From: Hydrurus foetidus
Lineage: Eukaryota
NCBI GenBank assembly: GCA_900617105.1
Contig: UYFQ01000474.1
Coordinates: forward strand, 1-52,929
Direction: 5' to 3'
Length of the DNA stretch: 52,929 nucleotides
Part shown: one piece after another, positions 2,248 through 38,345 of the stretch
Position numbering within the stretch: the first letter of the stretch is position 1
Layout: the number at the start of each line of letters is the position of its first letter
Translations under genes and position numbers: made by a program
The notes under the pieces: generated by a model
Databases searched by the model: none
Told to the model about the DNA's origin: nothing
What the model saw: the letters and a program-made list of their open reading frames with translations, nothing else

Positions 2248-4327
2248 ATGATGAAATCTATCACCTTCGTTCTTCTATCATTGCCCATGCTGCTGACCTC
2301 GTTCCAATTCAGCTCAACTCAACGAGGTGTACCGCTCACAAGGATGCAAGCCTCCACCTCGAGAGATCTGATGCACAGCACAAAAACAGTCGAATGGTAA
2401 GCGATGGTGTGAGATTTGTAACCCGCTACAGAATTTGACCTTGGAAGTCACCTCATGATAATATTTCTTCACAGTAAATTTTCTTTTGAAAGACTGCCAA
2501 GCCCTCTACGAGCGAACTCACAAAAGGCTGCTCTGAAATTGATATCTGCCTCAAGGAAGCTGCAGAATTTGATGAGGGTTCTGTCATATGATGAAGTCAC
2601 TCTCGTCACTGGCCTCTCGGCTGAGAAGATAATGAAAATTATTGCTAAATCCAACATAATAGAGCAGAAGCTGCTTGAAGGTATGCCGCCAACGTTGCAA
2701 ACTCTCATTGAATACATAGCCACCCCTTCACAAATGATCGTTTTCAACGCAGTCAATCTACGGTTGGTTCACTCCATCGCACTGCAACATCAGGGTATGG
2801 GTTTAGAACTCGAAGATCTCGTTTTCGAAGGTACAAGATACTTGAATACGCATAAAATGGAAAATAAAAGCAAGTAAAAGATAGACAGTTGTTTGAAATT
2901 GTCTTCTATTGCACAGGTGTAAGAGGGTTGAAGAAGGCATTGTCAAAATTTGAACCTGAGAAAGGCTGCGCGTTCAGTACGTATGCGTATCCATGGATTA
3001 GAGAGTACATACGTTCCGCCCTCGCCTCCTCCCTCCCAATTGCTCTTCCTCGGCATGTCTATCGCCTTCTTGTGCGCGTAAGAAGCATTCAGCAGCAAAT
3101 GTTATCAAGTGGCAGTGTTCCCACAGACGAGGAAACCGCTGAAGAAATGGGCATCCCCATGGAGAGATTTGAAGTCGTTAGGAGGGCCATGGCGCTGGCC
3201 GCTCGGTCCAATGACGCGACACCTGCAATCGCATCTTCTGGGAGTTCAAGTGGAAGGATTCAATTTCACGAAGCTACGTGGGAGAGGGTTGTTGAGGGGC
3301 ATACGGAAGGAAGGTAGGCAATATAATGTTGCTGAATACTTTCATCGCGTTACCTTCACACCATCAATTCTCAATTCAATAGTCGCTCGTACGTACGTAC
3401 TAATTATTTTGATGACGTACTGTTCCATTCATTTAGTGTCATGGAGCATGTGGTGTCGAATCAAGCTCAGCCGCATGCCCATTCAGAGAGGGCACAGAGC
3501 GAGATGAGGGGAGCAGTGTTACGAGCACTGAACACCCTGCCTGAAGACGAGTCCAGGGCAATCCATGAAAGACTCGGACTAGGTGATAAATATTTCTTTT
3601 TAGTCTGTGAGTAATGGATTTCAGATTGAAGTATCCTTGAACCCTCTCTCTGTTTTCTTGATCGAGACACCCCAAGCAAACGAAATCAATCTATCATATC
3701 ACATGGTATTTTCAGTACTTTTAAAAGGACATATCCATCTATTAGCCACTTAACATATACGCATCGTATTATATTATATCACATCATATGATATGACATC
3801 ACATCATATCATACTAAATAATATTACATCACGGTATATCATATTCTCAATCACGTATATTTTATCATCACGTATAGGATCATTTTCCACGACTGAGAGA
3901 GGGACGGACAGAGGAACGAATATTCTTCGATTCAGCGAAATGGACACATCACTCGGATTGGACAAGGAAACGTCCAAAGCTCTGTACCAAAAAGGTGAGT
4001 TAACCGTAAAAATTGGCCGTATCCGGTAAAATTACTCGTATTCTTTTTAATATGTGTGACAAAAATTTGTTCAAAAAATGTCATCCTAATGACGGGTGAC
4101 AGCAATGTCTATTTTCATTTTTTTTTTTAATTTCTGCTTCACCAATACATGAGCGTAGTTCTGAGGAAATGGATTCTAATACTATATACTTTACTAATAT
4201 TATTCTGATAGGAGTGAGAAGATTGAGGAGGAGGGCGAGTGATCCGAAGTACCCAGAAATGAAAGCTTTGGAAAGAATCTTCAATGAGCTGGAATATTCC
4301 TCGGGAAACGTTCTTCAAGATGCTTGA
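2248..4327 (+). CDS. Nuclear-encoded, plastid-targeted sigma70-family RNA polymerase sigma factor (6 exons: 2248-2396, 2475-2830, 2917-3313, 3437-3582, 3878-3994, 4212-4327)
   Basis: Signal peptide MMKSITFVLLSLPMLLTS-F. Region 2: NLRLVHSIA..GLELEDLVFEGVRGLKKALSKFEPEKGCAFSTYAYPWIR. Region 3: IALPRHV..PTDEETAEEMGI. Region 4: LNTLPEDESRAIHERLGL..KGVRRLR. All introns are GT-AG and in frame. Confidence 0.9.
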
Positions 4328-5495: not shown

Positions 5496-6911
5496 TCACG
5501 CCACGGTAGCCTCTTCAGACAAAACAGCTTCAGCTGGCTGTATGAGTCCAATAGAATCATTCGTTAAATTAGCTGATGATTCAACAAATTTGATGTTCTC
5601 TGTATGGAAGTGTTCAAGCGCTCTGGACAATTCTTCAGAAATCCATCCATGCCCCGGGATGGACGGGTCCGGTTTTGAGAGATATCCGCAATGACCCCCT
5701 GTTTTTGTGTATATGAGTCTCACAGGTGCATCACCAATATCGTCTTTCTCAGTTGGGAGAGTAAATTCGTCAACAAAAGGATCGTCAATTGCGTTTATAG
5801 CAATAGTTGGCACTCTGATTTTATGTAAATATTGCTTGCTTGCAGATTGTGTGTAGTAGTCCAATTTGTTCTTAAATCCGTAAATCGGCGCTATAAAAGC
5901 ATCGTCAAAATCACCGATTTTAGAGCAGGCGCGAATGGCTTTGATATCGATGAAATCGGGATTTTTCTCTCCGAATTCTTTGTACTGACGTTCTGCCTTC
6001 TTTTTCAGAGATGCAAGAAAGTTCCCAGAGTAAACCACCCTGCTAAAGCCTACGTCAATCTTCTTCTGACATTGCACTGTGTCAAACGGAACACAGAATA
6101 CAGCAGCACCCATGATGTTCCGAGATATTGCCGTTTCTCCTAATTCGCCCAAGAACTTCAAACAAACATTTCCTCCTAAAGAAAATCCACTTAGGAAGAT
6201 CGGTTCCTCAGGATACCTAATCAAATTTAGCGGAATATTCTCGTTAAGATTGGAACTGGCTCTATAGCGCATATCAGCTGATATCTTACCTTTCTTGCAA
6301 ATGCTTGCAAACAAGATCGACATCTTTTGTGAATCCTAAGTGGTAGCCTCCTGGCGTTTTGTTATCCTCTCCACTGCAGCCACGAAAATTAACCAGGCAA
6401 CAAGAAAATCCTTTGCTGAGAAATCCTGTAGTCATCTTGCTTACCAGTGGTCCCCTCGTATTCGATTCCAGGCCGTGCAGGACTACTACAGTCGCTTTCT
6501 TGTGAACAGTGTCACCTCTTATCGTTGCATCTTGATCGTTGAAGGATACATGATCCAAATCAAGGAAGTCGCCATCTGGAGTAGATACTCGCTCCCTCTT
6601 TGTCGTGAATGATCTAAGAAAGTCAAGGATCGAGTAGCACCGTCAGCCATTCTTTGTGTTTCTGATACAATATACACAACAAACTACCTTGGATAGTCTC
6701 CCCCCTTAAACTTCATCTGAAGAGCCTCCGAGCCAATGATTGTTTGCCAGTGATGATTCTCAAATAAACGAAATGGTCCAGACTGTGGTGTGAAGGTGCC
6801 AGCTTCGAAAGACTTTACCACACTGCGACGCAGAATTGCTGAGTCTGTCATCACTGAAAAAACTAGAACTTGCAGCAAATGTCCTACGACACAAACTGTT
6901 GGATTTTTCAT
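5496..6911 (-). CDS. Alpha/beta hydrolase, YheT/ABHD1-3 family (3 exons: 6911-6688, 6613-6290, 6216-5496)
   Basis: HWQTI, RERVSTPDGDFLDLD, VLHGLES, NFRGCSG, nucleophile elbow GFSLGG, DDPF acid, GGHCG His. Confidence 0.92.
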
Positions 6912-8367: not shown

Positions 8368-9599
8368 AACCGAATAAACCCTCCGACCAAAATTTTCAAA
8401 TCTCTGAACATCTGACAATTTGCTTGTCCTCCATCAACTTAGGGTATTTTTTTCATCAATTTCTGGCACTTTCTCGTGCACATGTGTACTCCATTATTTA
8501 GTACGGGACTCTATTGATCGATCATATCCGATTTCATGTAAAAATGCACAATATTTTGTACAAAACAATTTCGGTGTTTAAGTTTCTAGATTACTTCAAT
8601 GTGCTACGTACGTACCAAGAAAGTCGATAGTTAACATGACTGTCAAAAGTATGTACATGGATGTTAAATAATAAAATATGATGACATATTGGCACCACCA
8701 TCATAGTGACTGGAAATCAAAGAATCAAGAACAAAATGTATTCAGTATTTAATATGATGAAGAAATCAAATACAAATATAATATGATGAAAATCCGCCGC
8801 CGCCTTCTTCCATGTATATTGTATTTGATAAATTAACTGAAGATTTTGCGACTATCAATAAATGACAATTCACGTACATGGAAATTTAAATACATAGTTG
8901 TAGTAAATTGCACTAAAAATTATCTATGAATTGTGATAAAAATGTACTGGAAAAAAAATAGTAAACTTAAGAGGGGACAAATGGTCGATTCGATAACCAA
9001 TTCCGTTACTGTACTGTACACCGCAGCTCATCGTACGTGCAGAGCGGGTAAGTATAAAGTTTTGAATAAAATCGATCCATCTCGTGCACAAACAAATAAT
9101 ATCCCCTTCTCGTTTCCTTCTATCCGCCACGTATGTTCTCTCCTTTCTTGAAATGATTTTTCTGAAGTCATTTCTTAGTAGTCTTTTTCGCTTTCTTTAT
9201 GAACTCATTTTGTTTTCCTTCTTTGCTAAATCCCCGTCTTACATTTTAGGGAGTGAAAATTTTGAATTCCGCAAGTGCATATGTCTGTGCGCAAATTTTA
9301 CAATAAAAGTGCGTCCTGTACATATGTGCGTGCGTGTGTGTAAGTATGTGGTGCTGTGTGATGTGTTATGTATAGTGCGGTTCTGTTTGCCGATTGTTCG
9401 GTGGCTTGCGTTGTACGATTACAAGTACGTACGTACGTGCGAGCGTGCGAACATGAGATTGTGCCTAAAGCGCTTACGGTACTGTCATGATGGCTTGTTG
9501 ACGTGCTGTACATACGGAAGGTACGTACATGCGCATGACGTACGCACCCTGACTATGTCAGTTGTCTGCATCAGTGAATGAGCTACTTTAATTTCCTAT

Positions 9600-12500
9600 C
9601 TAAAATCTGGTTGCATTATCCGGCGTGTAGAATTTTTGTTGTTCCGGTTTTATTAAACTGTGACTTTTGTCGGAACTTTCGCACCCATGTTCCGCGACGA
9701 ACTTCAACAAGGAAGATAAATGCTCTTCCCTAAAGGGCTTGGAAAAAACACAGTCCGCGCCTGGTACGTACGCACGTACGTGGATAAGTGTTAGGCGTAG
9801 AGTACAGCAAGGAAATGAAGACAACGACTGACGCATAGATAAGAAGAGGTAGTATTCCTTCCACAGAACCAAACAAACAAAAACGATGCTAACGGCTACT
9901 CACAGAACCAAACAAAATTAACATTTCAACTTCAACTAGAACTTCAAGTCGAAAGTGTACTTACCGGCTTTGATGAAATTCGCCACATCATCATCCAAAG
10001 CATTTCCGGTTAGCCCTACTATCAATCCGCTAAAGCCGAGAGCCCGGATGATTGAAGATGCTTCTAGGCCGTTCTACGGTATAATACGGTTATTTTTCAA
10101 ATGAGTTTTTGTCATTTGTGTGGGGTTTATTGTTTGAATTTATTTGTGTGTGTAGTTCGAATTGTTTTATGTGTAGAGCGGAGACATAAAGTCAACCGTA
10201 TAAAACAATCTACAGATATTGAAGTACGTCAGTCGATCTGCCCTACTAGGGGGTCTAAATCTGTGTGGGAAACCATGTGACCCTCCTCAAGAATTGTCGG
10301 TTATACATGAGGGCCACTGTATAGCAGTCTGTCTCCGCATCGGTGTGCCACTGTCTATCTGCCTATCTATCTGTATGTCTCTCATAGATGTCGTCAGTTA
10401 ACAACCACCTATTGCTCGTGAAGACACTGCTGGAGACTCCTGATTATGTATTTTTCTCTGTGTAAGTACAATTGCACGTACGTACCATGACAGGCATTGT
10501 GTAATCCATGAAAATGACTTCGTATATCGTGGATCTCCTCGCACCCCCGTGATTAAATGCGGCCTGATATGAAATAATAAAATATTATTTTAGAATGAAT
10601 ATGGAGAAATATTACGAAATTTTCTGTAGAATTTATTAGTGGAAAATGATTTATTATCTTATTTTGTAATAGAGAAATAAAAAAACAGAAATTAAGTTAA
10701 AGATTGTAAAATTATACGGCGTATAAAGATGTCATCAAAAACAATGAGACAGAAAAGTGGCGAAGTAGAAAGCGATGCGTAGCAGATAAAAAGGTGAAAA
10801 GTATGTGGTATATGATGTTATGTAATGTATAAAGAGGATGCAATATATTCGAATTATTTTTGAAGGCAAACGACAGAATATCATAATAAAAATAAAATCA
10901 AATTGAACAATGAAAATTAATACCAAAAATTATTCGACATGAAGTATTCAACACATATATGAAAATCACGACTAATAAAAATCAAATATCAAATTACAAT
11001 AAATAGAGGGAGGAGGAATGAGAGACTGTTTGTAAGTACAATTGAAACTGTACTCACACAATGGAAGTACGAGATGTACGTACTTTGAAAGCTGTGACGG
11101 CCTCTAGACCATTGAACGCAATGTCGCACTTTATACCCTTTTTATTCAGAAGCATTTTTAACATCTTACAATTCGATTCCGCATCTAATAATTGGAATAA
11201 AATCAAATGAGGGAAGTAGATGGAGATTAAGTAATTGAAATATGGCCATGAAAAAAGAGAAGTTGTTAATATCTAATATAACATTATTTCAATATTGAAA
11301 ATTATTGACATCATTTCTGCAAATGGTGAACTAAAAAAGGATGCAGAATATAACAGTAAAATTGCAGGCATGCTTATTACACTTCTAGCAAGTGAAAGAA
11401 AATTAAGGGCACAAAATAGAAAATAAATATATTGCAGTGCTTTAAGAAGAAATCTCCGTAATATTATTATGTTCAATAATAAAATACAAAAAAAGTAAAT
11501 TTTTCACACTCACCATCAACAAGTAAAAAGTGCATTTTTCTGTCCGTTTCTTTGTCACCAGCAATTCTCGAAGTCCCACCGACAGAAAGGCCTTTCAGCG
11601 GACTTTTCGATGTCAAGGAAATGCTACTTCTCCCACTCCCACTGAGCATTTCTCTCCCTACTCCCCCTCTTTCACTCCCTTTATCTCCATTTAAAAAACT
11701 GTTTTGCTGACTGCGTGTACTGACGTCTGTGCTGATGCTTCTTGCTCTTAGGATTAATCCGGTTTCAGAATCCCTCTTTCGTAGCAAAGGACCGACAGCT
11801 GTAGGTACGGGTGACGTTACACTGTCACCTCCACTACCGTTCCTGCTTGCCCCTCCACTCGTATCACCGCTCACCACACCATTCATCGCACCACCTACTA
11901 CACCACTCACCACTGCATTCATCTCTCCATGTACCACACCACTCCTCACTCCGTTATCCGTTCCACTAGGAAATCCATTCGTCACGCAACTAGGTACTTT
12001 GTTAGATGTTCCGTTGAGAATTGTATTTCTGCCTACAAACACACCACCCACTGTGCTGTCAACAGCACCGCTCTGTGGTACATCAACTTCAACTTGAACA
12101 TCAGCACTCGCACTAGCTTTCCCTTCCCCACCACTACCTCCTTTCTCTCCTCCTCCTCCTACATCTCGTCTCTCTACCCCTTTTACAACATCCCCTCCAT
12201 CCTCCCCTGCACCCAATACACCCCTCCTATCCCCACTATCATCATCAATCATATGAGCCATCCTATTCAATCTTCGATATTCATCATTATCTTTTCCTCT
12301 CTGTATAGGTTCTGGAATTAGGTCTAGTTCCGCACCAATCGTATTTTGTTTAAATGATGTACATTCCGATTCTCTGAATTGAGAACTATAAGCGATAGAA
12401 GGAAACTGGTGATATCCTCCGTTATCGGTTATATCTTGTATTGAATTACTCCGTTTTTGTGGAGGTTTTGTGTATATTATACCTAGATCAGGTCTATTTT

Positions 12501-15500
12501 GAATCCTATTTTCATGAGTAAATTCAGGAACGGATATGTGGTGTGCACTGACGTGGTGCACAGATGGTGTGATGTGTTTTGGCTGACCGAGGTCCACTAC
12601 AGTGAAGGGGATTGTAAAGCCAAAAGAACTTCCGCAACCTAAATAATGGAAATGGCAGCAAATAATTGTTGTGTATTAGATAATATTCATTTTTGTATCG
12701 TTCCATTTTATTTCATAATTTCTCTCCTAACGTGATGATGTTCATCATTTCGTTTGGCACAATATATCGCACAACGTACCAAATGTGATGCTATGCCATG
12801 CTTTGTTACTAAACGCATATACCCATATAACACATATAAATCTATATAGTTGCATATCATGCAATGTTGTAAAAAGAAGAATACGTCACAGCACAAAACG
12901 CTGCAATGGAATCAGAAATCTCTCGCTTGAAAGTTCGAGCTTACCAAGCTCCGACTTGAACAGCACTTCACCACCGTGCAGTGTGATGATCTCCTTCGCC
13001 ATAACTAAGCCTACATAGTAATGGGGGAAATAGATAAAAGTGTGAGGGAGTGTGTGAGAAGAAGAAATTGAGAAAAAAAAGGAAGGACAGGAGAAAAAAA
13101 GGGGGGGAAACAAAACAAGGAAGAGATTGTGGTGTTAGAAAAAATATGTGGTGTTGGATGGTGACTGTGCGAAAGTGTGTGTGTGTGTGTGTGTGTGAAG
13201 GGGTTGACACTAACAATTGCACCCACTCTCAGTCAAGTGTTCTCAAAACTGACTGACTGACTGACTGACCGACTGACTGACTGGCCGAATGACAGATACA
13301 CTAACTGATTCACTCACCCAGCCCTGACCCTCTTCCTCCCTTGCCCTCTAGATTATGTGGTCGAATCTGAGCAAACGCTTGAAACAGTTTCCCTATTGAA
13401 GAAGTGACAATGATTTACAGCAGATAATGAGAACCCTCGTAAGTGATGTAATAGAGGAGTAATATAAGACTAAATTACTGGGTTTTAATCACCTTGATCA
13501 TCTTCATGGATACCCGCTCCCAAATCATTCACCAAAACAGTGACGTATCTGATTTGACAATCTCTCACTGATTTATTATCTCTACTAGGCGACTGTTGAA
13601 TTTTTGAAGATTTTCCATGGAATGAAAATCTTTTTCTTTTACTCTCCGAATTTCTACGTAACTTGAAAAATTTTCCTGTTGAAAATTCTGAAATTTTTCT
13701 TGATACGCACTTAAGAGCACTGCCTACTTCGATGGTTACGACACTGCCCACTACACTGAATTTTATGGCGTTGGACAAGAAATTTACGAGCACCAAATGT
13801 AGTCGATTCTGAATAGTGTAAGAGCAGGAGAAGTGATGCGGAAATTAGATGTTATGAAATGATAATACATGATAACGCAATAGCGTCGTAGGGAACGGTT
13901 TTGTAAAATACAAAAGAGCTGATTGGTGTCATATAAAGTACAGTATAACGAAATTGGAAAAAACTTGTATATGTATACATCAAAAATTGAGCAATATTAT
14001 TTCAAAATATAACTTTTTTATTCCTTAATATAAAAATGAAGAAAAATAGCAGACTCGTTTCAAAATTTTGTATAGGAAGAGTAATATCACAATTATATCA
14101 GTAAAACGAAGCAGTATTGATTGTCGATTACCAGCATTATTCTTTGCTATTAATAATAAGTGCTATTGGTTATCATGCAGTATAAGACTTGTAATTATGT
14201 TGTGTCAGTAGTCATCGCTATCTAGTATCGCCACTCATACCTATTGAGATTCTTCTGTTATTTAGTATAATCAATGGTCTTACCTCATCTCCTAAGATAG
14301 TTAAGTTCCTCGCTTCGTCCCTCGGAGACAGTCCCTTCACTATGATACGTACTGCCTTATTACCCGCTAGATTGCGTACAGCTCGCATAGCACCTTCCAA
14401 CAGAGACAATAAAGTAAAAGCCTTCACTACGAGACTAATGGCACCGTCTTCTATTTTACTCATACTTAACACGTCATTTAGTGTGTTGTTCATAAATCCT
14501 GCTGCTGCATCCATCATTGCCACCACTTCCTGACTTGCCTCGTCTAGCACCCTAAAACACAGAGAAAACGATACATAAAAATATGTGAAAAAGTCGAGGA
14601 CAAATAAAACAATGAAAATAACGCATGAAGAAAATAAGAGATGGAGGATGAGAAAATAGAAAGATATTGTCAGGAAGATAAAAGGAAAAGAAATAGTAGT
14701 TATTTTGAGAATGTAATTAAACGAAGACGAACAAAAATAACAGAATGTTTGTCCTTACATAGCGTCATCTTTTAACACGGTGATGCCCATTGTAATCGTG
14801 TTTAAAGGCACCCGAACTTCATGAAACACGTATCTCAGAAACTGCCTTCTTCTTTCATTGACTTTTCGTTCCGATGCGAATTGCATAACTACGGATTCCA
14901 AAGACAACGTGCTCACGAAGACTAGTTTAACTACCAAACCTATTAACATATTTGCCACCACTACTTCGTCTCTGTCCAGGACATGTACGATTCCTACGAA
15001 TTTTATACGGAATACAATCATCAATTGAAGTGGAAAATATGTGCGATACCTAAGGATTATACGGTGTAAAATAATGCGGTATATTTTATACGGTACAAAC
15101 AACGTCCCCTCCCATGTATTATAACTTGCATTCATTCCAATATGCACACAGATGTACTTTTATTGGCATGGTGGAATAGGAAATGAAAATTAAACAGAAT
15201 ATAAAATTTCAATCCAAAGTGGGTATCATGAAGATTTCAAAAAGATAAAGTTCATATGATATTTCTGTTACAATAGGCTTGTTTTCTCACCTAGGATATA
15301 CACAAAGACAAATAGCGGTAAGAGCCAAAAGAGAAGTTGTGCTAATTTGCTTTTCATTCTCATTCTTTCCAATATCCACTGACGAGAAAGAAGTTTCGAT
15401 GACTCATGATTCTTAGTATTTTCTTTCGCTTTTAAGGCTAGGATAATATTTCCCACCATACAAAGAGAAGAAAGAATAAACAATATAATTCCCCAAGCTA

Positions 15501-16182
15501 AATCCACGAAAAAGTTCATCACAAATCCGAATAGAATACATAGGAACATGAGAATGATAATCAACCAATCCTCAACGGTCAGTTTCTTTTTATCCTCGAC
15601 AGCTATGGCGATGTAAACCAACAAAGGCGCTGCAACAAGCCATTCAGGCCACTGGCAATTCGGAGTATCCATTCCTAATGCATCTCTGCAGACAGCCTGT
15701 CCTAAGGACGTCAAATATACAACAGTAGAAGAGCCTGCTATAAGGCTCATCGTGAATGCTCCTGCGTAAACAGCTCGCAGATGTTCTGTTTCTTTCTGTG
15801 CCCAAGATTCAACGGCTAGACCGTTGACGAAATTATAACACGCGGACAGTCCAAAACAAGCAGAGACAGCTATTCCAACATCAAATGTCCAAGCAGCGAA
15901 AGGTTCGTTACGCTCACAGAATTTCGACTGAGTATTTAAAATCGCCTGTAACATAACATAACATAGCGTAGACAGTGGCATCACGTAGTGCCATTGTCTG
16001 CTTATGAGAGTTCTCTCATCTGAGAGAAGATCCATTGATCTGTCCGCGTCGCTCATTTGAAGATTACTTCTGGTTCTCATCACAGGATCAGATTCGTGAT
16101 GCCCTCGAAGTATATTGTCAGTCTCACGAGAGCGATAAAATGAATTATCAGGATTTTCAGGGCTGATCCCATCGTCTGCCAT
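9600..16182 (-). CDS. Microbial-rhodopsin-like 8-TM sensor fused to histidine kinase (HisKA + HATPase_c) and response-regulator receiver (histidine kinase rhodopsin-like), ~1141 aa. 11 exons: 16182-15291, 14993-14759, 14551-14284, 13808-13493, 13392-13318, 13010-12945, 12638-11514, 11184-11084, 10563-10486, 10073-9965, 9760-9600
   Basis: Rhodopsin: helix C QWPEWLVAAPLL (cf. bacteriorhodopsin RYADWLFTTPLL); helix G LIGLVVKLVF with Lys at 14926-14928. Kinase: H-box FLRYVFHEVRVPLN, N-box NFLSNAIKF, G1 VNDLGAGI, F-box LFQAFAQ, G2 GRGSGLGL. Receiver: FLLVDD, FMDYTMPVMNG, GLTGNA, FSKPF. Exons sum to 3426 nt with frame preserved. Confidence 0.9.
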
Positions 16183-17320
16183 CCTCTTGACGTTGTTTAT
16201 GCAAATTTCTTTGATCACCAGCTAGTCTCTCTAGAGCACATCATCAGCCAGCAAGAGAAGTTAGACTGTGCCACATTTTTGACCAATCTTCAAACAGTGT
16301 CACCAATGACTAAAAAACATCAATTTGAAGCATCTGCAGCAAATCTGACGATGAAAAATACCGCGGTCGTCGCTGGTAAGGCGTCCTATAAGCCAAGGCT
16401 GTTTCTGTATCTTGAAACGCTGAATTTATGGTGTTCGTCAATGACGTCGTTGAACACAAAACCTATCAAAATTCCAAAGCCGAAAAAAATAAAAAATACC
16501 CAACAGTTTTTCGTTTCTCGGCTGTGGGTATCGGTATCTCACTCGGAATCTTTCCAACTGTAAGTCCAAGGTCTGGACATAATTCTGCACACGTACTTTC
16601 AACTTTCGTGGTTGCAGGTTGCAGGGGGTATCGTAACGTACATACATACGTGAAGATACTACATAAAAGATATATTAGATACAGTACGGTATATGTATTA
16701 TGACTACCAGTACCCCCCTTTCAATTTCCCGTCTGTATTCCACACGTACGGTACCTACCGTATACTGTAACTATTTCTACGGTAATATGTATGGTATATT
16801 AAGGTACACATCGGGACAGAATATGGAAGACCGTAAAATGTCCTGAACACAGGAAGGAAACAGATTCCAGCACTGTTGAGATCACCAATTCAACCTCGGA
16901 TTCGTTTTCTTTCTTAGATACTTTATTCCGCTGCGGTACGGTTGTACATCTGATCTCATCTAGATACACTGTACATTGTACATCAAAGCTGGTTTTGAAA
17001 CTCTTCGCTAGCACTTCAAAAATCCACTAAAATTTTATATGAAGAATCGTCAAATGTTTCGCTTTAGATTGCAAGTTATGTTTATTTCAGCAAATAATAA
17101 TTAAAACACAACTGCCAGTGTACATGTGAGCATTGCCCCTGACAGAATGGGTTCTTGGTACTATCTTGCCCCTCATTTTGGCAAACAGTCCAGTGGTGAG
17201 ACGATAGTGAAGCAACTTTACCGATCATCACCAGGCACGATGCTGTCAATGTCACTCCATCATCCAGCCATCCACCTCACTGACCACATAACCGGTGAGT
17301 TGAGGGTAATGCGCTTCGGC

Positions 17321-20300
17321 TTAGAGCGACCGTGCTGTCCAGTCCATGAAATCTAACTGACTATAATCACTACTTAAAGAATCATTCAAAAGTTTTTTAC
17401 ACTCTGCTTTTTTTTTTCGTAAAATTTTCGCGACATCATCAACTGTAGTTGAAATTTGAACCTTTTTTTCATTTACTTTTTTCTTTGTGAAAATTTCATC
17501 ATCATGCCCTTCAGTCGAATCATTCGGATCGGTTGGTGTGGGGCCGAGAATGTTCCTGAATATTGCTTCTCCCTCTTTGGTCGCAGCGGCTATCATGTCT
17601 TCCATTTCAAGGGTTGTAAGAGAGGAAACAGCGTCAGTTTGACAGGTGTTATTATCGCCTCCAGTGCCACTGCTATTACCGCCACTTCCTTTACTGCTGC
17701 TGTTATTGTTGCTGCTATTGTTGTTGTCCAACAGGCTATTGACTAACTTTCTCTTCTCTCCTACTTCCACCTCCCCCTCTACATCTCTCCCTTCCCCATT
17801 GGTGCCATTCTTAAAACCTTCTTTCAATGCTCTTTTTTTCACTCTGTCAATGACTTTATCTGATTGGTGTAATAATACGGCTAGTTTTCTCTCATAATTC
17901 AATTGCATCATTTCTTCTTCTATTAGTCGTTCCTTCTCATCATCTGTGTGAGATTAAATAGAGTGGATGTCAGTGGAATTGTACATGTTGAACTATTGTC
18001 AGCTTGCAACTAATGAGTTATAGATATGTGAGTGGGTGAATGCATGGGTGAGTAAGTATGCGTGAATGGGTGGAGGTGAAGTGTAAATTAGTGGGAGTAA
18101 GTGCGTGTGCAAATGACAGATTTAGTTTCAATCAGTTGAGAGACATGTGCAACACAGCACCACACAGTACAGCACAGCACCATATAGTGTAGAAAGTAGT
18201 GAAAAATGAAATAGTGGCGCATTCAAGTATCGCATTCAAGGAAGAACTCGAATAGGTGCAGAGACGCACAGAAAAATCGAAGACTGAGGAAGTTTGTTAA
18301 AGCGCTTATAATCTTCAGTATATGCGGACAGATGAATGCGACCATGATGGATCCTCATATTATTGGTTCTCATGTCTATTTGATAGTAATGGATGTAGAA
18401 CGCACGTAGAGCAATAGCACGTAAATGTACAGTATAGTATAGTACAGTACAGCTGCGTAGGCCCATACGCAATACGCAGATATATACGCAACGGTGTGCT
18501 GTACAGTACGTACATACAATACCCCCAATATAGACAGTACTGTATGTTGCAATACAATAAGTAAGTAAAATTGCAGTACAGTGTAGTATGCAGACAGTGG
18601 AGTACAGTACAGTACAGTACAGTACAGTACAGTACAGTACAGTACAGTACAGTACAGTACAATACAGTACAGTACAGTACAGTACAATACAGTACAGTAC
18701 AGTACAGTACAGTACAGTACAGTACAGTACAGTACAGTACAGTACAGATACAGTACAGTACAGTACAGTACAGTACAGTACAGTACAGTGCAGCACTCTA
18801 CAGTACAGTGTAGCACTGTACAGTATGGTACAGTATAGTGCAGTACAGTACAGTACAGTACAGTACAGTACAGTACAGTACAGTACAGTACAGTACAGTA
18901 CAGTACAGTACAGTACAGTACAGTACAGTACAGTACAGTACAGTACAGTACAGTACAGTACAGTACAGTACAGTACAGTACAGTACAGTACAGTACAGTA
19001 CAGTACAGTACAGTACAGTACAGTACAGTACAGTACAGTACAGTACAGTACAGTACAGTACAGTACAGTACAGTACAGTACAGTACAGTACAGTACAGTA
19101 CAGTACAGTACAGTACAGTACAGTACAGTACAGTACAGTACAGTACAGTACAGTACAGTACAGTACAGTGTAGTACAGCACAGTACAGTACAGTACAGTA
19201 CAGTACAGTACAGTACAGTACAGTACAGTACAGTACAGTACAGTACAGTACAGTACAGTACAGTACAGTACAGTACAGTACAGTACAGTACACAGTACAG
19301 TACAGTACGGTACAGTACAGTACAGTACAGCGGTACAGTACAGTACAGTACAGTACAGTACAGTACAGTAGGTACGGTACAGTACAGTACAGTACAGTAC
19401 AGTACAGTACAGTACAGTACAGTACAGTACAGTACAGTACAGTACAGTACAGTACAGTACAGTACAGTACAGTACAGTACAGTACAGTACAGTACAGTAC
19501 AGTACAGTACAGTACGGTGTAGTACAGCACAGTACAGTACAGTACAGTACAGTACAGTACAGTACAGTACAGTACAGTACAGTACAGTACAGTACAGTAC
19601 AGTACAGTACAGTACAGTACAGTACAGTACAGTACAGTACAGTACAGTACAGTACAGTACAGTACAGTACAGTACAGTACAGTACAGTACAGTACAGTAC
19701 AGTACAGTACAGTACAGTACAGTACAGCACAGTACAGTACAGTACAGTACAGTACAGTACAGTACAGTACAGTACAGTACAGTACAGTACAGTACAGTAC
19801 AGTACAGTACAGTACAGTACAGTACAGTACAGTACAGTACAGTACAGTGTACAGTACGGTACAGTACAGCAGTACGGTACAGGTACAGTACAGTACAGGG
19901 TACAGTACAGTACAGTACAGTACAGTACAGTACAGTACAGTACAGTACAGTACAGTACAGTACAGTACAGTACAGTACAGTACAGTACAGTACAGTACAG
20001 TACAGTACAGTACAGTACAGTACAGTACAGTACAGTACAGTACAGTACAGTACAGTACAGTACAGTACAGTACAGTACGGTACAGTACAGTACAGTACAG
20101 TACAGTACAGTACAGTACAGTACAGTACAGTACAGTACAGTACAGTACAGTACAGTACAGTACAGTACAGTACAGTACAGTACAGTACAGTACAGTACAG
20201 TACAGTACAGTACAGTACAGTACAGTACAGTACAGTACTGTACGATACAGTATAGTGCAGTACAGTACAGTACAGTATAGTGCAGTACAGTACAGTACAG

Positions 20301-24001: not shown

Positions 24002-26468
24002 TCAGGCGGGATAGGCATAGGAATTTACCGGGTACAATACAGGAGTCACTGTCAGAGTCCTTGTGGGACTCCCTATAGGGGTTGCAGTGGCTGTAGGAGT
24101 GGACATTTTTTTGTCCTCCTCAATTGGTATTTTTTCTGGTGTGCATCTTTCTCTGATACAACAGAATAATAGTGCTAGCCCGATAGCGCTCATAAGAGAT
24201 ATTAATGTTCCTATCGCAACTGCCACCACATACGCATCCGAACCCGTACCTAATTTTCGTTTCAAAGTTTGTTGAATTAGACAATTGCGAAGTACTGTTG
24301 AGTAATAAGATGTACTTCGTACGGCAGTTCAGAGGGAATAAAGTTATCAAATGACTGAAATAAAAAGGCAATAAGAAGTAAGATTACGAGCAATCGAATT
24401 CTTTACTTACTTTGGTATACTGCCAGCGGATTGGATAATATCGTGGACGGCGCGAATGTGACTCTGCGTGTGGGGGGAGGGGTGGGGGTAGAGTACGTGG
24501 TTGGGCAGCGACTGAAACCCGGAGTGGCAGTCCCAAGTGACAAGAACACGGATTGCATTTTACCGAAATTAACTGACCCCAGCCCAGTAGTGGGGTCCCA
24601 TCCTTCGGTAGCGTGGAATCCGTGAGGACAGCACGTACCGTCCGCCGCACATCTGTTGTCACCGCTTGTGATGTCATTCACGAATTGGGATCCTTTCGAA
24701 TACAGTGTTGGGTTTATCCAGCCCACAGAGCCCTTCCCAATCTCAAAGCGAGCTGCATTGATGTTCGAAAAGTACCCGGCCAAAGTGGGAGCTGAGGCAG
24801 ATGTACCGGATAGCAAATACTCCTTTCCGGCTATCACGGTTAAATAGTTACTGCCAGCCAGGGATATATCCGGATATGCTCTCATAGAGGAGTTGTAACC
24901 GGATCGTAATTTGATTCCTGCTGCAGCTGCTGATGCGAAGTAGGCTTCGACAGCCTGCGTCTGCCAAGATGGGCGGGGATAGTAGGTTGAGAAACCGCCA
25001 CCGGAAGTGATAACCTGACCGGGTGTGTTGCCCTGTGCTACGACCTCGTTAGTGTCTCTCTCAACACCCTATACATAGAATGAGAATAGTGGAATGTCAG
25101 AGAATGAAATTAATTGATAGAAAGGTGCACATGTGACGTGATGATGAAGATAAATAATGAAAGGAAGTGATGATTCAATTTCAGTCGTACCGAGGTCGCG
25201 CCAACTACTGTGACGTACTGACTCGCAGCCGGAAAGTCTGACACATATCTGCATGACTTCACCGACCCTCCTCTCACATTCCTACTCAGCACTCCATCGT
25301 CACCACTTGATACAAATATCGTGACACCCATGACACTGAGTTTAAGAGCCACCACATTGAATGCATCATGAAGAGATTTAGAAATGTACTTTTCCTCCGT
25401 TCCATAACTTATGCTTAACACCAGAGGCGGTTTCGGGCTGTTCGATACAGCCACGAGCCATGCATTGAAACCTTGGTCCGTGTACCAGTGCGTTGTTGGA
25501 GATTTCTGAGAGGCCGCCATGATGTACTGAACATCTAAATTGCTTTCGCTGCACAGCTCAGCATTCTTGACGCATACGGCATGACTGTTATGGTCGTTGA
25601 TGACATCCACACCTTGTACTCGCAGGCCATGGTCTGTCTGGAACTGCGTCAGATCGGTGGGGCTGACGTTTTGTCCGATAGTTGCGAATATCGCTTGGGT
25701 AGATTTCTCGCTGCCAGACCCAGTCATATTGTAGACTGAATTGAGCTTTGCTGGAGTTACCACGCCATATTCAGCTGTCTTACGAAGATCATCGGTAAGT
25801 TCTTTGAAGATTGATTCGCCACCCCTTTCGTTGTACGGCATCTCGATAGTGTTGAGAATGCTAGCAACATGTGCTTCCAGGTGGGCAGGAACGGAATAAG
25901 TCTCTGCCCTTATTGAATGAGCGTACTCTCCATTCAACTTCTTCTGCTGGAATGAGTAGAACTCTGTATTCAGCAAACTTTCCCATACTGAAATCGGAGC
26001 CTCGCACGTTACGAAGTCTCCATCGAGGGTGACACTTTTGATCCTCGCGCCACTTTCTTCCAAGAATGAAGACACCAAGGATAAAGACTCTGGATTCGAT
26101 GTCAGGCTAGAGACCTCAAGCCTTGATAGATGCTGTCCGTAATTGACGCTGAGTGGATCTGACACATCGTGTAATATCCGAGACAGCTCTTTCATGTTGA
26201 GCTGTTTGATAACAAAAATGACCTCATGAATAACGTCACTTAGTACTCTAGCATTCTTCACTACGTCATCGCGAGTCTGAAGGTAAGGCATGGCCTCCTG
26301 GAAGACGTGCGAGCTTGGCCTGGGATTGGAGGCCTTCGCACGATCATCTGATCTCCGCAAGTTACCGAGGCTTGAAATTGAACTTAGACTCGTACTTGAA
26401 TATGAGCGTTGACTCGAGGAGGACACATGGCAGAAAGCGACGAGTAGAAGAAGAGGAGTCAAGCGCAT
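24002..26468 (-). CDS. Sedolisin / tripeptidyl-peptidase I-like S53 serine peptidase with prodomain and C-terminal TM anchor (3 exons: 26468-25191, 25068-24411, 24294-24002)
   Basis: Signal peptide MRLTPLLLLVAFC. Pro-kumamolisin prodomain (DVSDPLSVNYGQHLS). Catalytic ESNLDVQY, SISYG, SSGDDG, RAYPDIS, GTSASAP. Ca site DITSGDN..GWDPTTGLGS. Confidence 0.93.
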
Positions 26469-27727
26469 CGAGCACATTGCGCACATCGAGCACAGTGTCG
26501 AATTATGTACTGTAATGTATGTCGAATATTCAATTGACAATCCCGAATCCCAAATCTGGTAAAGTGCTGGTGCGTGTCGCTGTGTCGTGAGGTCCGTTCG
26601 GTTCGTTGCATACAGATCGAGATGTGAGGGTTGGTGCGATGAAATGAAAGAAAAAAGAAAAAAGAAACCCTCACACGAAACCGACACGGTTTCTTTTCTT
26701 TTTTGAAACCCGAAACCGATGGAGACGTTTTACTCCGTGCGTGTGTGTCGCATGCAAGTGCAAATGTTTTAATGTTTTAGTGTCGCCAGTGAATTCCCTG
26801 TACACGAAGTTGCATGATCAGTTTCCTTGAAACTCCCGTACGCTCTAAAGCAGGGTGACTCTTCTGAGTGAGAAGGAGCTGAGAAAGAGCAGGTAGATTG
26901 AATCGGAGAAAAACTACCGTACGTGGCCTGAAAGTGAAAGGATTAAACTGACAAAAATGAAGTGTATTCATACGAATGCTGTAACATATTTCCGACGCGG
27001 TAGGTATGGATTATCCTAACACTATTCAGAAACTTAATGAAAGAAGTTCTGAAGAAGTTTTGAATGGTAAAACAAAAAAAATTATTCTGACATGACATCT
27101 TTTTGAAGATTTTTCCTAATTTTACCTCAGGATTACGGTTTTGGAGCCAACAGTAAAAATTTGACATGACCACGTCATATACACAGAAACACTGATTTGT
27201 TGTTCCGTCACTGTGTCCAAGATAATCTGATGGACCTTTCTCACTATGTTAAGTGATTCTCATGGCTTGTCCCCTGTAGTCTATTCTGTAATCTTCAGCA
27301 GTGTTCGAACATGCTATGTATTTTTATGCACAGCACCATATGGACTGTAACGTACTGAACTGTAACATAGCGAGGCGTAACGAACTGTAATGTACTCCTT
27401 ATTTACAGAACCACTCAAAAATAAAAATCCGTACTAAAATTGATGACATGTAAAATTGTCCATTTTTCTGTATTTTAGTTCAAAATAGTGGCTACTCATG
27501 GAAATGTGCACATTGTCGTTTCTATCAATTATGTTCTTAGTGGACAATGTTCAATTTGACGGCAAAAATTAAACAGAAATTCGATAGATATAGTTGGTGT
27601 CATGTCACGTGCCTTGAAGTGGAGAGTGAAGAGTGAAGTTAAGTGGAGTCATGTATGTGCATTTGGTCATAAGATTTAACACTGCCTTGAATCTAATTTT
27701 ATTATCATCTTGTCTCTCATTTTGCTT

Positions 27728-33586: not shown

Positions 33587-36003
33587 GTCTCTCTCTTCCT
33601 CCCCTATCTCCCTATATTTCTCTCTTCATTCTTTCACACATTGAAAATACTCATACATGAATACATACGTGTGACTGCACTTGCGCACGTGCGTATATGA
33701 ACACACACACGCACATGTACATACACACGCGTACATACGCACACATGCATACGTACTTCATTGAATATGTAAGATAGCCGTGCCCCTCCGTATAGATCGT
33801 TCATCTCCTCGCCCCCCACAGTGGTTCCCTTCCCATCCACCCCGTCACACACACTCATGGCGTACTTGGACAGGAGGTTGAGGAGGATGCCACCTATTGT
33901 GTGTTGTGTTATGTGATGTGATGTGCAATGATGTGTTGAGATCTGTAGTGTGTTGTGTTACGTGTAATGTGTTGGGATATGGGTGATGGAGGTAGATATG
34001 ATGATGATAGAAGAGGTTATCGTTATTAAGATGATAGTGACATGACGACGGTAAAGATGATCAAGATATAAATGTCAATGCAGAGCAGACACACGCGTGT
34101 TGTCACAGTTTACGAGAAAATATGTGTCATGACTTGAAAAGAATTCATTTAGTAAACTGCTAATGCTTATGAAAGCTCCCACCCATTTTCGATATTCCCT
34201 GTGCATCCGCTGGCTCTCCTAGGACATCAATGTTGCTCTGTGTATTTGTTGTACGTAATAGCGTATTTTACTTAACGTGATAAGTGACATTTGACATAAT
34301 ATTATATTCTACATGATACATAACTTTCGATATGATATGTAAAATTTAATACAATTAATTAATATAGAATAGAATAAATAGTAGAAGTGACATTTGCGAT
34401 GGATTAGAATTTAGCACTCTAGAAAAGAGCACATCCAATAAAAATAAAATAGTACCTGTACACTATTTAACAATGCGACAATTCGAGCTTTAATTTCCGG
34501 CAAACTTTCTTTAATATGCAACATTAAAATTTGATTTAATGATCTGGACAAATTAACTGTCCCACATTTGGTAAGAATGTCTCTGTATTTAGGATGAGAT
34601 TGGAAGAACTTTTGTTCTTTTATTAATCCTTGTCTGATAGGCAGATCTTCGTTGATATCTTTTTGAGAACGATTCACGACTGCCACATATCCTCTACAAA
34701 GAAGAAAAAGAAGAGGAAGAAGAAAAAGGAGAAGCAGTAGGAGATGTAGATCACATAAGAAGAAAATAGGAAAAAAGAGGAAGGAAGGATAAAGAAGAGG
34801 GAAAAAAGAAAAAGTACAGAAGAAGGAGATTTGAGGTAATGTGACTGGGAGTATTGTAGTACATACGGTACACGACTTCGTGCATGATGCCTTTGTGTGG
34901 AGACACTGATGTGTGCTATGGGATCAGTGCAGTGCAGTGCAGTGCAGTGCAGTGTGGAGTAGTGTGATGTAGTGTAGTGTAGTGCAGTACAGTAAGGCGC
35001 ACTGAAATGAAGTGCAGTGCAGTGCAGTGCAAAGCAGCACAGTAAAAACGTAGCAGTGCAGCGTAGTACAGTGCAGTATCGCGTGGCATCATATCGTATC
35101 TATCGTACGTACACACTTACGTACCTTTTCAGCGGCACCACACGATTGAGCAGAACTTCTGCACAGTCAGTTCCCTGAAAGAAGTCGAGCATTCAAAACA
35201 TTCATAATATTGCGAGTGCTTTTATTTGTTGTGATTGGTATGTGTTATTGAATAAATATTGCGTGAATCAGTTAGCACATAAATGATAGTGTCTATCGGT
35301 AAGGCACTGTGCAGTTTGTTAAATACGGTCCATTGACTTATTAAGTCAACAATTCAATAATCTATTTAGTCGCTCTCTCGTACGTGCTTGAAGTTGCGAT
35401 AGTGATATCATAGAGTGCATAACGGTGACGGTTACACTTCAGACAATTTCTACGGATACTTCAATACAACTTCATGTTGAAGTGTTACCGAAACAGAATA
35501 AAATATTCAAAATGACGATTGAAAACGGGTTGAAGTTTGAGCACTGTTGAAGTCACCATATCATTTTCAACGTGGATTCTTCTCATTCTTAGATGTCATA
35601 TTTTATTATATTTTGGGAACAATTTACCTGGTCCATGATGTCCACTTTGGTGAGAACTCCCACGGTCCTGAGTCCCTCTGGGTCCACACTGCGAGCCATC
35701 TTCAACCCGTCACTATTCACTGGGGTGAGAGGGGAGGGAGGAGAGTGGGGGTGAGAGGAGAGGGAGGAGAGTGGGGGTGAGAGGAGAGGGAGGAGTGGGG
35801 GTGAGAGGAGAGGAGGAGTGGGGTGAGAGGAGAGGGAGGAGTGGGGGTAGAGGGAAAGAGGTGGGGTGGGAGAGAGAGAAGAAGGAAGACAGGAGCAGAA
35901 GTGACTGAGGTGAAATGGAATGGCAGAAAATGTGAATGAACAATTGATAATATGGAATGGATAAGGCATGTGACACATGTAGCAAAAAGCGAACATAAAA
36001 ACA

Positions 36004-36047
<44 letters not shown>

Positions 36048-38345
36048 GACCAATCATTTAGTCAGCCACGAATTGATTGATTCACTGACTATCTGAAAGA
36101 CCACAAACTGATTGACGGGCAAAGTAACAGACAGACAGACAGACAACAGTCATAAACGTGACTCACCTATATCTTGGTTCGCCCCTGTGACAGCTAGTAT
36201 GATTGCGTTGGGATTGCTGATGAACTCATAGCACATTAGTCGAATCTGTCGCATACAATAAAAGATGACATGGTATTAGTCTTATTTATCACGAACAATT
36301 CGATGCAGTGTAGGAATGATGGATGAGGTATTGGCTAGTAGAAATGACATCTTGTGGGATGCAATGCAATGAAATGCAATGCAGTGTACCGTAATTAAGA
36401 TGTGCTTCTACATAACATCGGTGAGAATGATACAGTACGCGTAGAATTTGATTCCCTCTCAATCAGGTGAGAAACATTTTGTATTCCGTATTCTGTATTT
36501 TGTATTCTGTACCTGCTCCTCCACATCTTCAGGTTGGTCTCCTACAATATCCCCAGGGGGAAGATTACATTTCAGTATTAGAACAGTGGAGGTCAGAAAT
36601 AGAAAAGCAAAGATGACTAAATGAAGACTTGTATAATGAGTTGATAACTTTGAATAATAATGCAGGCAGTGCGACACTCTGATTTTCAGAACTCGATGTG
36701 TAATAGAAATTTGTTCGAGACAGTATTTACGGCTAATTTATTGAACGGATATCAGATAAAAATGAATCTTTTTTCCATTCTCACAGTGTAATGCAATCAA
36801 CAAGTCAATACAAACACATTTACAAATGCACACACACACACACACACACACACAAACTCTCTCACACACTCTCTCGTACACACGTTCGTACGTACCTGTA
36901 GGAACCTTCGTTATACCGGGTAAGTCGACAAGTGTCAAGTTAAGAACGTGTGGGGAGAAAATCTTGAGATTAATTGGGATTTTAGAAATTCCTTTATTCT
37001 TTCCTGTGAGAGAATTACGTCAGTGCGATGTTTAAAATATTTTGAATTTTATGAAATTTAGTGTGGTATGATTCGTCACATTTTTTTCTTTTTCTTTTTC
37101 GTATCCTGTTGAAATATTGTTGTAGTGGTGCTGAATGGTTGATGACATAGTCTGATATGAATGTAAAGTACTTTATCAAGAAGAATGACGTCACACTTGC
37201 AATCGGAACAATATGCAGAACACTACAGACATTCTGATGCACATGACGACAGAACAAATAATTGTTACTACAATAAAATCCCGATAAGAATAATAGATTA
37301 ACAATATCTAGAGATGATAATGGGAATTTGACTAGACACTATTTGACACAGAATTTCATTTGGAAAAATTAGTGCAGCAAAAAGAAATAAAATCCGAACA
37401 AATTTAACTTCAAACAACGTGCTTCTTACCTGACATTCTCTCTGTTTCCTTCTCGATTTCTTTTCTAATTGCACCAAAATCGTAGAATCGATTAGACGGC
37501 AAGTGAAGAAACTCTCCCCACTCTTCTCCTCTGAATAATTGTTGCAGAATGATGTGCGTCAGACCCACAGTAGAACTTTTTAAAACTCTCAAAACTAACA
37601 TCCAGAATATTAACTGACGCCACAATTGATGACGTTTTCAAAAAATTAGCACAATTCACACAAACAACTTCAATAGATAAACATCATTCTTAGGAACTTG
37701 TGTTAGGAACTTGTGCTAGGAACTTCTGTTAGGAACTTTTGTTCTTACCTTGCGGCCTCCTCTTCGGTGAAATCATCGATATTGACTTGATACAGCTGCA
37801 GAACAAGCGGTCTCCGAGTGCATATACCGTGGGATCGGGGGAGGAAGTCTCTGCGTAACAGTTGGTATAATATGGTCAATCGACAGACTGGTATATGTAT
37901 AGATAGATGTTATGATCAATTAGAGCGTCAAAAGATGCGTCACTGGCCCGATATATTCTTCTCAATGCGACATGTGATTCGTGATCTATCAGCTAAATTG
38001 ACAGAGGATCGATGACTTTGTATTCGAAGACAAATCCTTATAAATCATATTCCGCAGCAGTATTCTAAAGCTGCATAAGTGGAGCAGCTCTCGCTAATCT
38101 CTAAAGCTGTCGATATGTGAAGACATCGGTATCATTTGCATGGGTCCTTGTCGAATCCCGCTGGATAGAGGCAGCTTCACATCCACAATTCAAGTTGGTT
38201 ACCTCCCGACGATGTTTTCGAGAACTGATGATTTCCCGGCAGACTGGGAACCAACGACAACAATTTGCGGGAGATCAACTGGCTGGTGACCAATGGCACC
38301 AAAGACATCCTGAAGTTTATTGACAATTGGGATCAGCTGATCCAT
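27728..38345 (-). CDS. Dynamin-related protein (DRP1/Dnm1/Vps1-like GTPase), about 24 exons
   Basis: [14 protein letters not shown]-loop [71 protein letters not shown]. Last exon [10 protein letters not shown] at 27760-27728. Includes a 29-nt exon at 36541-36513. Confidence 0.96.
31141..31435. repeat. (GAT)n microsatellite in a dynamin intron
   Basis: Directly visible imperfect GAT run. Confidence 0.95.
32026..32120. repeat. (AAGTA)n pentamer run with an internal duplicated block in a dynamin intron
   Basis: AAGTA units plus a repeated AAGTACAGCAAAGTAAACAGAAAG block. Confidence 0.9.
33517..33580. repeat. (TCTG)n microsatellite in a dynamin intron
   Basis: Directly visible. Confidence 0.95.
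35720..35860. repeat. G-rich ~19-24 bp minisatellite (GTGGGGGTGAGAGGAGAGGGAGGA-like) abutting a dynamin splice acceptor
   Basis: About 5-6 imperfect tandem copies; pyrimidine-rich on the gene's sense strand. Confidence 0.85.
37690..37743. repeat. 13-bp tandem repeat (TTAGGAACTTGTG) x4 next to a dynamin splice donor
   Basis: Directly visible, with point variants. Confidence 0.9.

Follow-up and report, generated by a model that had tools for sequence, protein, structure and literature searches.

We analyzed a contig of 52,929 nucleotides (UYFQ01000474.1 of the Hydrurus foetidus assembly GCA_900617105.1), referred to in its full length as the window, and found on its minus strand an expressed and intact gene of 11 exons that encodes, in a single frame, a rhodopsin-like membrane domain followed by a histidine kinase and a receiver. 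We put at roughly 0.7 the probability that the product is a retinal-based, light-regulated hybrid histidine kinase, in which Lys320 would carry the pigment, Glu180 would act as the single counterion, and phosphate transfer would be switched by light.

The exons run from 16182 to 9600 and splice into a frame of 3426 bases (1141 residues and a stop codon) with no internal stop, in agreement with a preliminary description, made from the sequence of the window, which had joined them into one gene. All 10 introns have GT-AG borders and are mostly lower in G+C than the exons. Two stranded poly(A) RNA runs from one sample that carries the species label of the window (X20 and X21, about 6 in 100 reads of each run being used) provided reads on the expected strand for all 10 splice joints, which are supported one by one by short reads and not by a single full-length molecule. 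Introns 2 to 10 are each spanned by 6 to 31 reads (X20 and X21 summed), and intron 1, which separates helix F from the Lys-bearing helix G, by eight (two in X20 and six in X21); intron 6 is also spliced in contigs from two metatranscriptomes. The X20/X21 read depth falls to about zero at 15381-15451, inside exon 1, and a contig from run X14 (15292-15654) bridges this dip, and a pile of reads at 13248-13295 represents an intronic simple repeat and not expression. Run X1 gave no contigs, which can arise from filtering. A pseudogene or a mis-joining of neighboring genes is ruled out, because every joint was found in RNA, and we conclude that the gene is real, expressed, and intact and that its exons are co-transcribed, helix F to helix G included, as the preliminary description had supposed. 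Reads extend upstream to about 16445, giving a transcribed 5' leader (16183..16445) in which we noted five upstream ATGs (16244-16333), each opening a short frame (6-10 codons), and downstream past 9000, giving a 3' untranslated region of at least 600 bases (9000..9599).

The membrane domain and its retinal pocket

Exon 1 (15291..16182) contains the start codon, the N-terminal tail, an extra N-terminal membrane helix (TM0), and helices A-F, together residues 1-297. When the 10 single-exon stretches were searched with Pfam, no rhodopsin was found (E ≤ 1 in exon 1) and HisKA and HATPase_c appeared only below threshold, and a single-sequence search of the PDB returned a sole match at E 8.8. The preliminary description had warned that the rhodopsin is easily missed; a family profile and the predicted fold do find it. 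The ESM Atlas placed exon 1 at 0.92, adjoining bacteriorhodopsin-like clusters. An AlphaFold model of exon 1 (62 aligned sequences) has seven helices at a mean pLDDT of 92.4, and its top match among 48,161 solved chains was the rhodopsin phosphodiesterase Rh-PDE (7d7q; Z 18.6, rmsd 3.0, 220 aligned residues, model range 1-238). Ranks 1-36 were microbial rhodopsins throughout, and Foldseek likewise matched the model to rhodopsins. Heliorhodopsins (Z 12.4) and xenorhodopsins (Z 15.3 or less) scored well under Rh-PDE, and identity as a heliorhodopsin was rejected on fold and TM0.

Model residues 5-25 form a helix that is aligned solely by the TM0-bearing chains 7d7q and 7pl9; bestrhodopsin also covers the first model helix, whereas 7-helix rhodopsins begin at model residues 26-39. 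The first helix therefore corresponds to TM0 (residues 65-82; 15937..15990), which the preliminary description had also recognized. Lys and Arg are richer in the inside than in the outside loops, which fits an N-terminus inside, and the protein is thus predicted to have TM0 and two cytosolic termini, a trait of enzyme (type Ib) rhodopsins. The window protein was modeled over exon 1, and helix G was modeled in relative P0012, the full domain of which adopts a rhodopsin fold (TM 0.82 to sensory rhodopsin II; alignment of 74) in which residues 300-367 form one unbroken helix that takes in both helix G and the H box. The alignment of exon 2 with relative P0006 is gap-free, at 51% identity. Overall, the models point to a seven-helix type-1 rhodopsin fold, as claimed before, with a helix G that is predicted to continue unbroken into the kinase helix.

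The family profile came from a HMMER search of 1.84 billion representatives (50% clustering), which found 243 clusters at E ≤ 0.001 and 91 at 1e-10; the family counts below use the best 150 of the 243. When longer proteins were searched with exon 1 through a word index, none of 1601 candidates obtained a score, which we regard as a failure of sensitivity because the HMMER scan then found the 243 clusters. Against solved rhodopsins, the profile reached E values down to 3.8e-10 and placed the Lys on the retinal Lys and the Glu on the counterion; Rh-PDE was absent among the 60 matches listed. The family is poorly annotated, probably because gene callers stop at the intron before helix G: in 17 of the 150 rows helix F is present but the greater part of helix G is missing, and several of these rows break off a few residues beyond helix F, which fits intron-stopped gene calls.

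For the retinal pocket, position labels follow PMC13739731, and counts refer to rows with a residue in the given column. The helix C motif (residues 177-188; 15619..15654), described earlier as rhodopsin-like, holds Gln177 at the Arg82 position, Glu180 at the Asp85 position, Trp181, and Pro186. The pocket side of helix F (15298..15321) presents Leu288 (6.50), Phe291, Val292 (6.54, the Pro position), and Tyr295. Helix G contributes Gly316, at the Asp212 position, and Lys320 (14926..14928), the predicted retinal Schiff-base lysine by family conservation and profile alignment, so that the pocket reads Gln, Glu, Trp, Leu, Phe, Val, Gly, and Lys. The bacteriorhodopsin numbers Arg82, Trp182, and Pro186 denote what we take to be the equivalent pocket positions. 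Across the family, the retinal Lys7.50 is kept in 85 of 92 relatives, Glu3.45 in 126 of 134, Trp3.46 in 132 of 135, Pro3.51 in 135 of 138, and Gly4.54 in 112 of 137, and 6.53 is Phe or Tyr in 97 of 112. No column of helix G varies less than that of Lys320. Among the 88 rows spanning helices C and G, the window protein being one of them, 83 combine the Lys with an acidic residue at the counterion site and 84 carry the Lys; two of the other four look truncated or misaligned, and the sister pair P0072/P0075 shows Lys to Asn and Glu to Gln together, one event and only a hint that the two residues are lost jointly.

The usual set of Arg3.42, Trp6.50, Pro6.54, and Asp7.46 is replaced in the window protein by Gln177, Leu288, Val292, and Gly316. 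Neither this pocket nor the Val at the helix-F proline had been pointed out in the preliminary description. We think that it marks a variant and would not exclude the protein from the type-1 rhodopsins, as exceptions are known at 3.42 and 7.46: heliorhodopsins and xenorhodopsins have no Asp7.46 yet bind retinal (PMC13739731). In Glu180, the pocket would have a carboxylate counterion close to the Schiff base. Further, Cys89 in the loop between TM0 and helix A (15916..15918) and Cys165 in the B-C loop (15688..15690) are Cys in 96/98 and 113/122 relatives, respectively, and both in 83 of 89 rows; their loops are predicted to lie outside and adjoin beta strands in the exon-1 model, and a Cys89-Cys165 disulfide is predicted.

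The kinase, the receiver, and the proposed mechanism

Directly behind helix G, exon 2 (14759..14993, with Gly316 and Lys320) continues through a helical linker into the H box with the HisKA phospho-accepting His355 (14821..14823). The ATPase domain begins in exon 3 (14284..14551), after the second DHp helix, and proceeds through the N box (Asn474 and Asn478) and G1 box (Asp560) in exon 4 (13493..13808), the F box and the first part of the G2 box in exon 5 (13318..13392), and the remainder of the G2 box with the next helix in exon 6 (12945..13010). Exon 7 (11514..12638) holds the end of this domain, a Gly/Ser-rich linker of about 354 residues, and strand 1 of the receiver, the rest of which is spread over exon 8 (11084..11184; acidic pocket Asp993 and helix 1), exon 9 (10486..10563; phospho-acceptor Asp1046 at 10504..10506), exon 10 (9965..10073; Thr1074 at 10008..10010), and exon 11 (9600..9760; Lys1096-Pro, with Lys1096 at 9738..9740, the C-terminal tail, and the stop codon). 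The H, N, G1, F, and G2 boxes are intact and alignable with 22 relatives. Single short exons gave no receiver match in Pfam; the receiver residues Asp992/993, Asp1046, Thr1074, and Lys1096 are all preserved and line up with those of relatives that do match Pfam Response_reg. The coordinates given earlier for the phospho-accepting His and Asp were correct, and the domain order proposed then, with a coiled segment between rhodopsin and a complete HisKA, stands. HisKA and HATPase_c are fused directly behind helix G across RNA-confirmed joints, as in histidine kinase rhodopsins (HKRs), and the receiver, with its acidic pocket, phospho-Asp, Thr, and Lys, appears from its sequence to be of the kind found in HKRs. 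Val359, at the +4 phosphatase position, suggests little phosphatase activity. The frame ends 45 residues past the receiver Lys, where the RNA goes on as 3' untranslated region; a 2c-Cyclop was rejected, as there is no C-terminal guanylyl cyclase behind the receiver.

The distance from the retinal Lys to the phospho-accepting His is 35 residues in the subclade of the window gene (five rows). Among the 43 rows with a recognizable H box, the other distances are 38-39 (9 rows), 41-42 (28 rows), and 66 (1 row), so that 42 of 43 fall on steps of about one helical turn, and turn-sized length steps have been described for the coiled-coil linkers of photoreceptor kinases (PMC6798134). We also noted that the insert in exon 4 (13554-13721) places 56 residues in the ATPase domain with 16 Lys/Arg versus 4 Asp/Glu, and that relatives carry inserts of different sequence at this site.

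Under the mechanism that we propose, retinal would be bound at Lys320 with Glu180 as the single counterion; losing the equivalents of both Arg82 and Asp212 leaves the net charge around the Schiff base unchanged. Photoisomerization would move helix G and twist the coiled coil between helix G and DHp in a dimer; His355 would autophosphorylate and pass the phosphate to Asp1046. A separate phosphotransfer protein or receiver partner would take the signal onward, because no cyclase or DNA-binding domain is attached, and eukaryotic multistep relays are known to use a separate phosphate-carrying protein (PMC6324907). If 2c-Cyclop is a guide, the kinase would be inhibited in the light, the sign itself not being readable from sequence.

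Alternative readings

Several observations speak against a light-regulated kinase. Arg3.42 is found in just 3 of 136 relatives (Gln in 87), Asp7.46 in just 3 of 91 (Ser in 46, Gly in 21, Asn in 17), and Trp6.50 in at most 2 of 113, and these three positions are called well conserved in the characterized rhodopsin clusters (PMC13739731). Helix F has Pro in 81 of 109 relatives where the window protein has Val292, the phospho-accepting His is kept in just 50 of 72 relatives, several of which have degenerate kinase motifs, and the helix G model comes from a relative only and not from the spliced window protein.

The family-wide loss of the Arg82, Asp212, and Trp182 equivalents, together with the conserved extracellular Cys pair, could mean that the rhodopsin fold responds to a non-light cue (pH, membrane state, a lipid-soluble ligand, or redox via the Cys pair) and that Lys320 and Glu180 form a buried ion pair. 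A ligand-receptor repertoire would also fit the divergence of the paralogues (median pairwise identity of 23% across 93 near-complete domains), and some relatives have no kinase at all. We nevertheless consider this unlikely, although it is the strongest of the alternatives, as Trp3.46, Gly4.54, Phe/Tyr6.53, and Lys7.50 are kept together, the heliorhodopsins and xenorhodopsins cited above bind retinal without Asp7.46, and the occurrence in raphidophytes of Gln3.42 with Asp7.46 and Trp6.50 looks like a stepwise change within a retinal pocket.

Slightly less probable again is that the family binds retinal and that the window paralogue is an impaired or auxiliary subunit, functional solely when it forms a heterodimer with a different family member, or a kinase uncoupled from its own pigment. 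Val292 stands where the closest relatives keep Pro (P0001, the closest, at 69% identity, among them), many paralogues exist, some with dead kinases, and fungal rhodopsin cyclases function only as heterodimers (PMC7655827 and PMC8815786). On the other hand, all catalytic residues are intact in the window protein, and 6.54, a known color-tuning switch (PMC13739731), is not Pro in 24 of 109 relatives (Thr, Ala, Gly, or Val). Further, among the differences listed between the window and the strain of X20/X21, almost all lie in the linker exon and no residue of sensor, kinase, or receiver is changed: 22 of the 24 classed coding differences fall in exon 7, the 13 codons with changed meaning are all in the linker, and the remaining two differences are silent. 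We note that the linker segment at 11514-12100 has more than 20 fixed X20/X21 RNA differences in about 500 bases, whereas exons 1 and 2 are nearly identical; the segment could be either fast-evolving or a divergent haplotype block.

That the rhodopsin part is an ion pump or channel with the kinase tail as a regulatory appendage is highly improbable: the family profile does score pump-type and sensory rhodopsins above Rh-PDE by sequence, and inward pumps likewise dispense with one counterion (PMC13739731), but the proton donor/acceptor motif is absent (no Arg3.42; Glu/Ala/Ile at 3.45/3.49/3.56 in place of a pump motif such as DTD, NDQ, or TSA, with 3.56 mostly Ile, Leu, Val, or Met among 140 relatives), the top fold match is a non-transporting enzyme rhodopsin with TM0, and enzyme rhodopsins are described as having neither pump nor channel activity (PMC12558739), and we rejected a pump on the missing transport motif.

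The family, known systems, and the surrounding genes

The window protein belongs to a large, deeply diverged family that the preliminary description had not noticed. A Pfam scan of 69 relatives, picked mainly for length, found Bac_rhodopsin at E ≤ 0.01 in 28 (19 reaching the curated cut-off), HisKA, HATPase_c, or Response_reg in 46, an N-terminal RGS domain in two, and a guanylate/adenylate cyclase in one. Three of the 28 clusters looked up are named, all chrysophytes (Mallomonas marina, Epipyxis sp., and Mallomonas annulata), with no green alga among these three, and three more contain MMETSP transcripts. The two Mallomonas members are just 25% identical to each other and are therefore old paralogues. 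DNA-level scans with a few exact patterns, which are no proof of absence, confirmed no related locus in metagenome contigs, viral contigs, or prokaryote genomes.

The outputs of the relatives vary. The His is replaced or the H box degenerate, with the rhodopsin Lys kept, in P0012, P0163, P0165, P0046, P0050, P0062, P0038, P0092, P0116, and P0142; these ten are likely pseudo-kinases, which the family thus appears to include. P0107 (745 amino acids, JGI/IMG) has its rhodopsin domain directly fused to an adenylate/guanylate cyclase (Pfam E 2e-58), followed by an apparent receiver start, and keeps Glu3.45 and Lys7.50; it is possibly a rhodopsin cyclase of an origin separate from the fungal ones. 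P0027 (Mallomonas marina) and P0051 have an RGS domain before the rhodopsin domain and a degenerate kinase behind it, an arrangement that might couple light to G-protein signaling. P0054, P0056, P0059, P0061, P0053, and P0055 consist of a rhodopsin domain and a low-complexity tail without kinase and might act as sensors on their own or as partners in heterodimers.

Among characterized systems, Ot-HKR of Ostreococcus tauri resembles the window protein in its order of rhodopsin, kinase, and receiver without a cyclase and in Glu3.45, Trp3.46, and Lys7.50. It differs in its Lys-to-His spacing of 42, one heptad above 35 (Dataset S3A of PMC8017926), in its canonical H box, where the window protein has Val at His+4, and in keeping Arg3.42, Thr3.49, Trp6.50, Pro6.54, and Asp7.46 in place of Gln, Ala, Leu, Val, and Gly. 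HKR1/COP5 and Cr2c-Cyclop1/COP6 of Chlamydomonas and Vc2c-Cyclop1 of Volvox likewise have an 8-helix opsin with both ends inside, a kinase directly behind it, a long spacer, and a receiver, and the 2c-Cyclops require their Lys, His, and Asp for function (PMC6284317). Unlike the window protein, however, the 2c-Cyclops have a guanylyl cyclase, the Lys-to-His spacing of Cr2c-Cyclop is 54 (K298-H352), Thr356 of Cr2c-Cyclop1, a proposed phosphatase residue (PMC6284317), is replaced by Val, and HKR1 has Arg3.42, Met3.45, Trp6.50, and Asp7.46. Salpingoeca rosetta Rh-PDE (PDB codes 7D7Q and 7CJ3), the best structural match with TM0 included, is only 12% identical and has a phosphodiesterase output in place of a kinase. 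Heliorhodopsins and xenorhodopsins share the acid at 3.45 and the missing Asp7.46 but not the TM0-kinase architecture, and heliorhodopsin topology is inverted.

The nearest catalogued proteins are in clade A.5 of Dataset S3A (PMC8017926), 35 rows listed as 'enzyme rhodopsins' from raphidophytes, pelagophytes, dictyochophytes, and chlorarachniophytes, with two chrysophyte-type fragments, which we compared by eye over the first 400 residues of each row. In these, as in the window protein, the rhodopsin is followed by a near-identical H box. Eight rows from named ochrophyte genera (Heterosigma, two; Chattonella, three; Dictyocha; Aureococcus; Pelagomonas) show the kinase H box behind the rhodopsin. 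The raphidophyte rows share Gln3.42, Glu3.45, and Trp3.46 with the window protein; Trp6.50 and Asp7.46, both of which the chrysophyte family has largely lost, are still present in the rows from raphidophytes and chlorarachniophytes. Rows 112 and 113 are kinase-less fragments that show the helix C/G pattern of the window family, row 113 being nearly identical to relative P0059. Row 112 is filed under the dinoflagellate Gymnodinium catenatum and may be a chrysophyte contaminant. The claim of the preliminary description that such proteins are uncharacterized in ochrophytes thus stands only in part: such fusions had already been catalogued, as had two fragments belonging to the window family, and the literature searched, in which subscription papers are mostly uncovered, yielded neither a study of any rhodopsin kinase from an ochrophyte nor an experiment on the catalogued ones.

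The main-text passages of PMC8017926 available to us do not discuss the ochrophyte rows of clade A.5. According to reviews, enzyme rhodopsins occur in fungi, green algae, and choanoflagellates (PMC12558739); a kinase survey, in the part available, places rhodopsin kinases in green algae and Thecamonas and not in its four stramenopiles (PMC6324907), and marine single-cell genomes place enzyme rhodopsins in haptophytes and green algae (preprint 10.64898/2026.04.17.719054). The words opsin, histidine kinase, and photoreceptor do not occur in the main text of a 2026 chrysophyte genomics preprint (10.64898/2026.10.27.762293), and the literature searched held no paper on a chrysophyte rhodopsin kinase. 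An uncharacterized cluster of PMC13739731, which describes a 'cluster 5' without the 7.46 counterion, or a 2021 Annual Review of Microbiology rhodopsin review may already include the window family. What appears undescribed in the literature searched is the chrysophyte expansion with its size, a pocket stripped in this way, the paired cysteines, and alternative outputs through RGS and cyclase domains. Tentatively, and at somewhat less than even odds, we suggest that golden algae possess a large lineage-expanded set of 8-helix rhodopsins with a one-Glu, disulfide-capped pocket lacking the Arg82, Asp212, and Trp182 equivalents and with outputs that can replace one another (a histidine kinase, an RGS domain together with a kinase, or a nucleotide cyclase), which would amount to overlooked multi-color light sensing, a photochemistry unlike that of tested rhodopsins, and an independent rhodopsin cyclase. 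Chrysophytes are major freshwater producers and grazers whose light sensing is discussed via flavin receptors, and at least 243 clusters half missed by standard annotation would give their signaling an entire retinal-based input. The family would be a natural test of a Schiff base without Arg82, Asp212, and Trp182, its paralogues varying at the color switches 6.54 and 7.49; the short 35-residue Lys-to-His link and the member fused to a cyclase could be developed into optogenetic tools, and the RNA-confirmed exons and intact catalytic residues make the window gene directly testable.

The host is likely a chrysophyte (golden alga), as indicated by one neighboring gene with moderate support. The named relatives of an alpha/beta-hydrolase exon (5499-6215) are all ochrophytes, in line with the ochrophyte origin proposed earlier, and in a FastTree tree of 78 rows it lies at distances of 1.06-1.19 from three named chrysophytes (Mallomonas annulata, Ochromonas CCMP1393, and Chlorochromonas danica) versus 1.81-2.22 from four other named ochrophytes. 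An intron-split sigma-70-type gene at 2422-3507 on the plus strand probably encodes a nucleus-encoded plastid sigma factor, as expected in a plastid-bearing alga. The minus strand also carries a sedolisin/tripeptidyl-peptidase-like protease with a pro-kumamolisin domain (24403-26729) and exons of a dynamin-family gene (34411-36053). An array of a 5-base repeat of about 2 kb (18400-20300) has long open frames on both strands that are not evidence of protein, and a mucin-like long frame of Pro/Thr/Ser/Gln tetrapeptide repeats lies at 49900-51300 on the minus strand.

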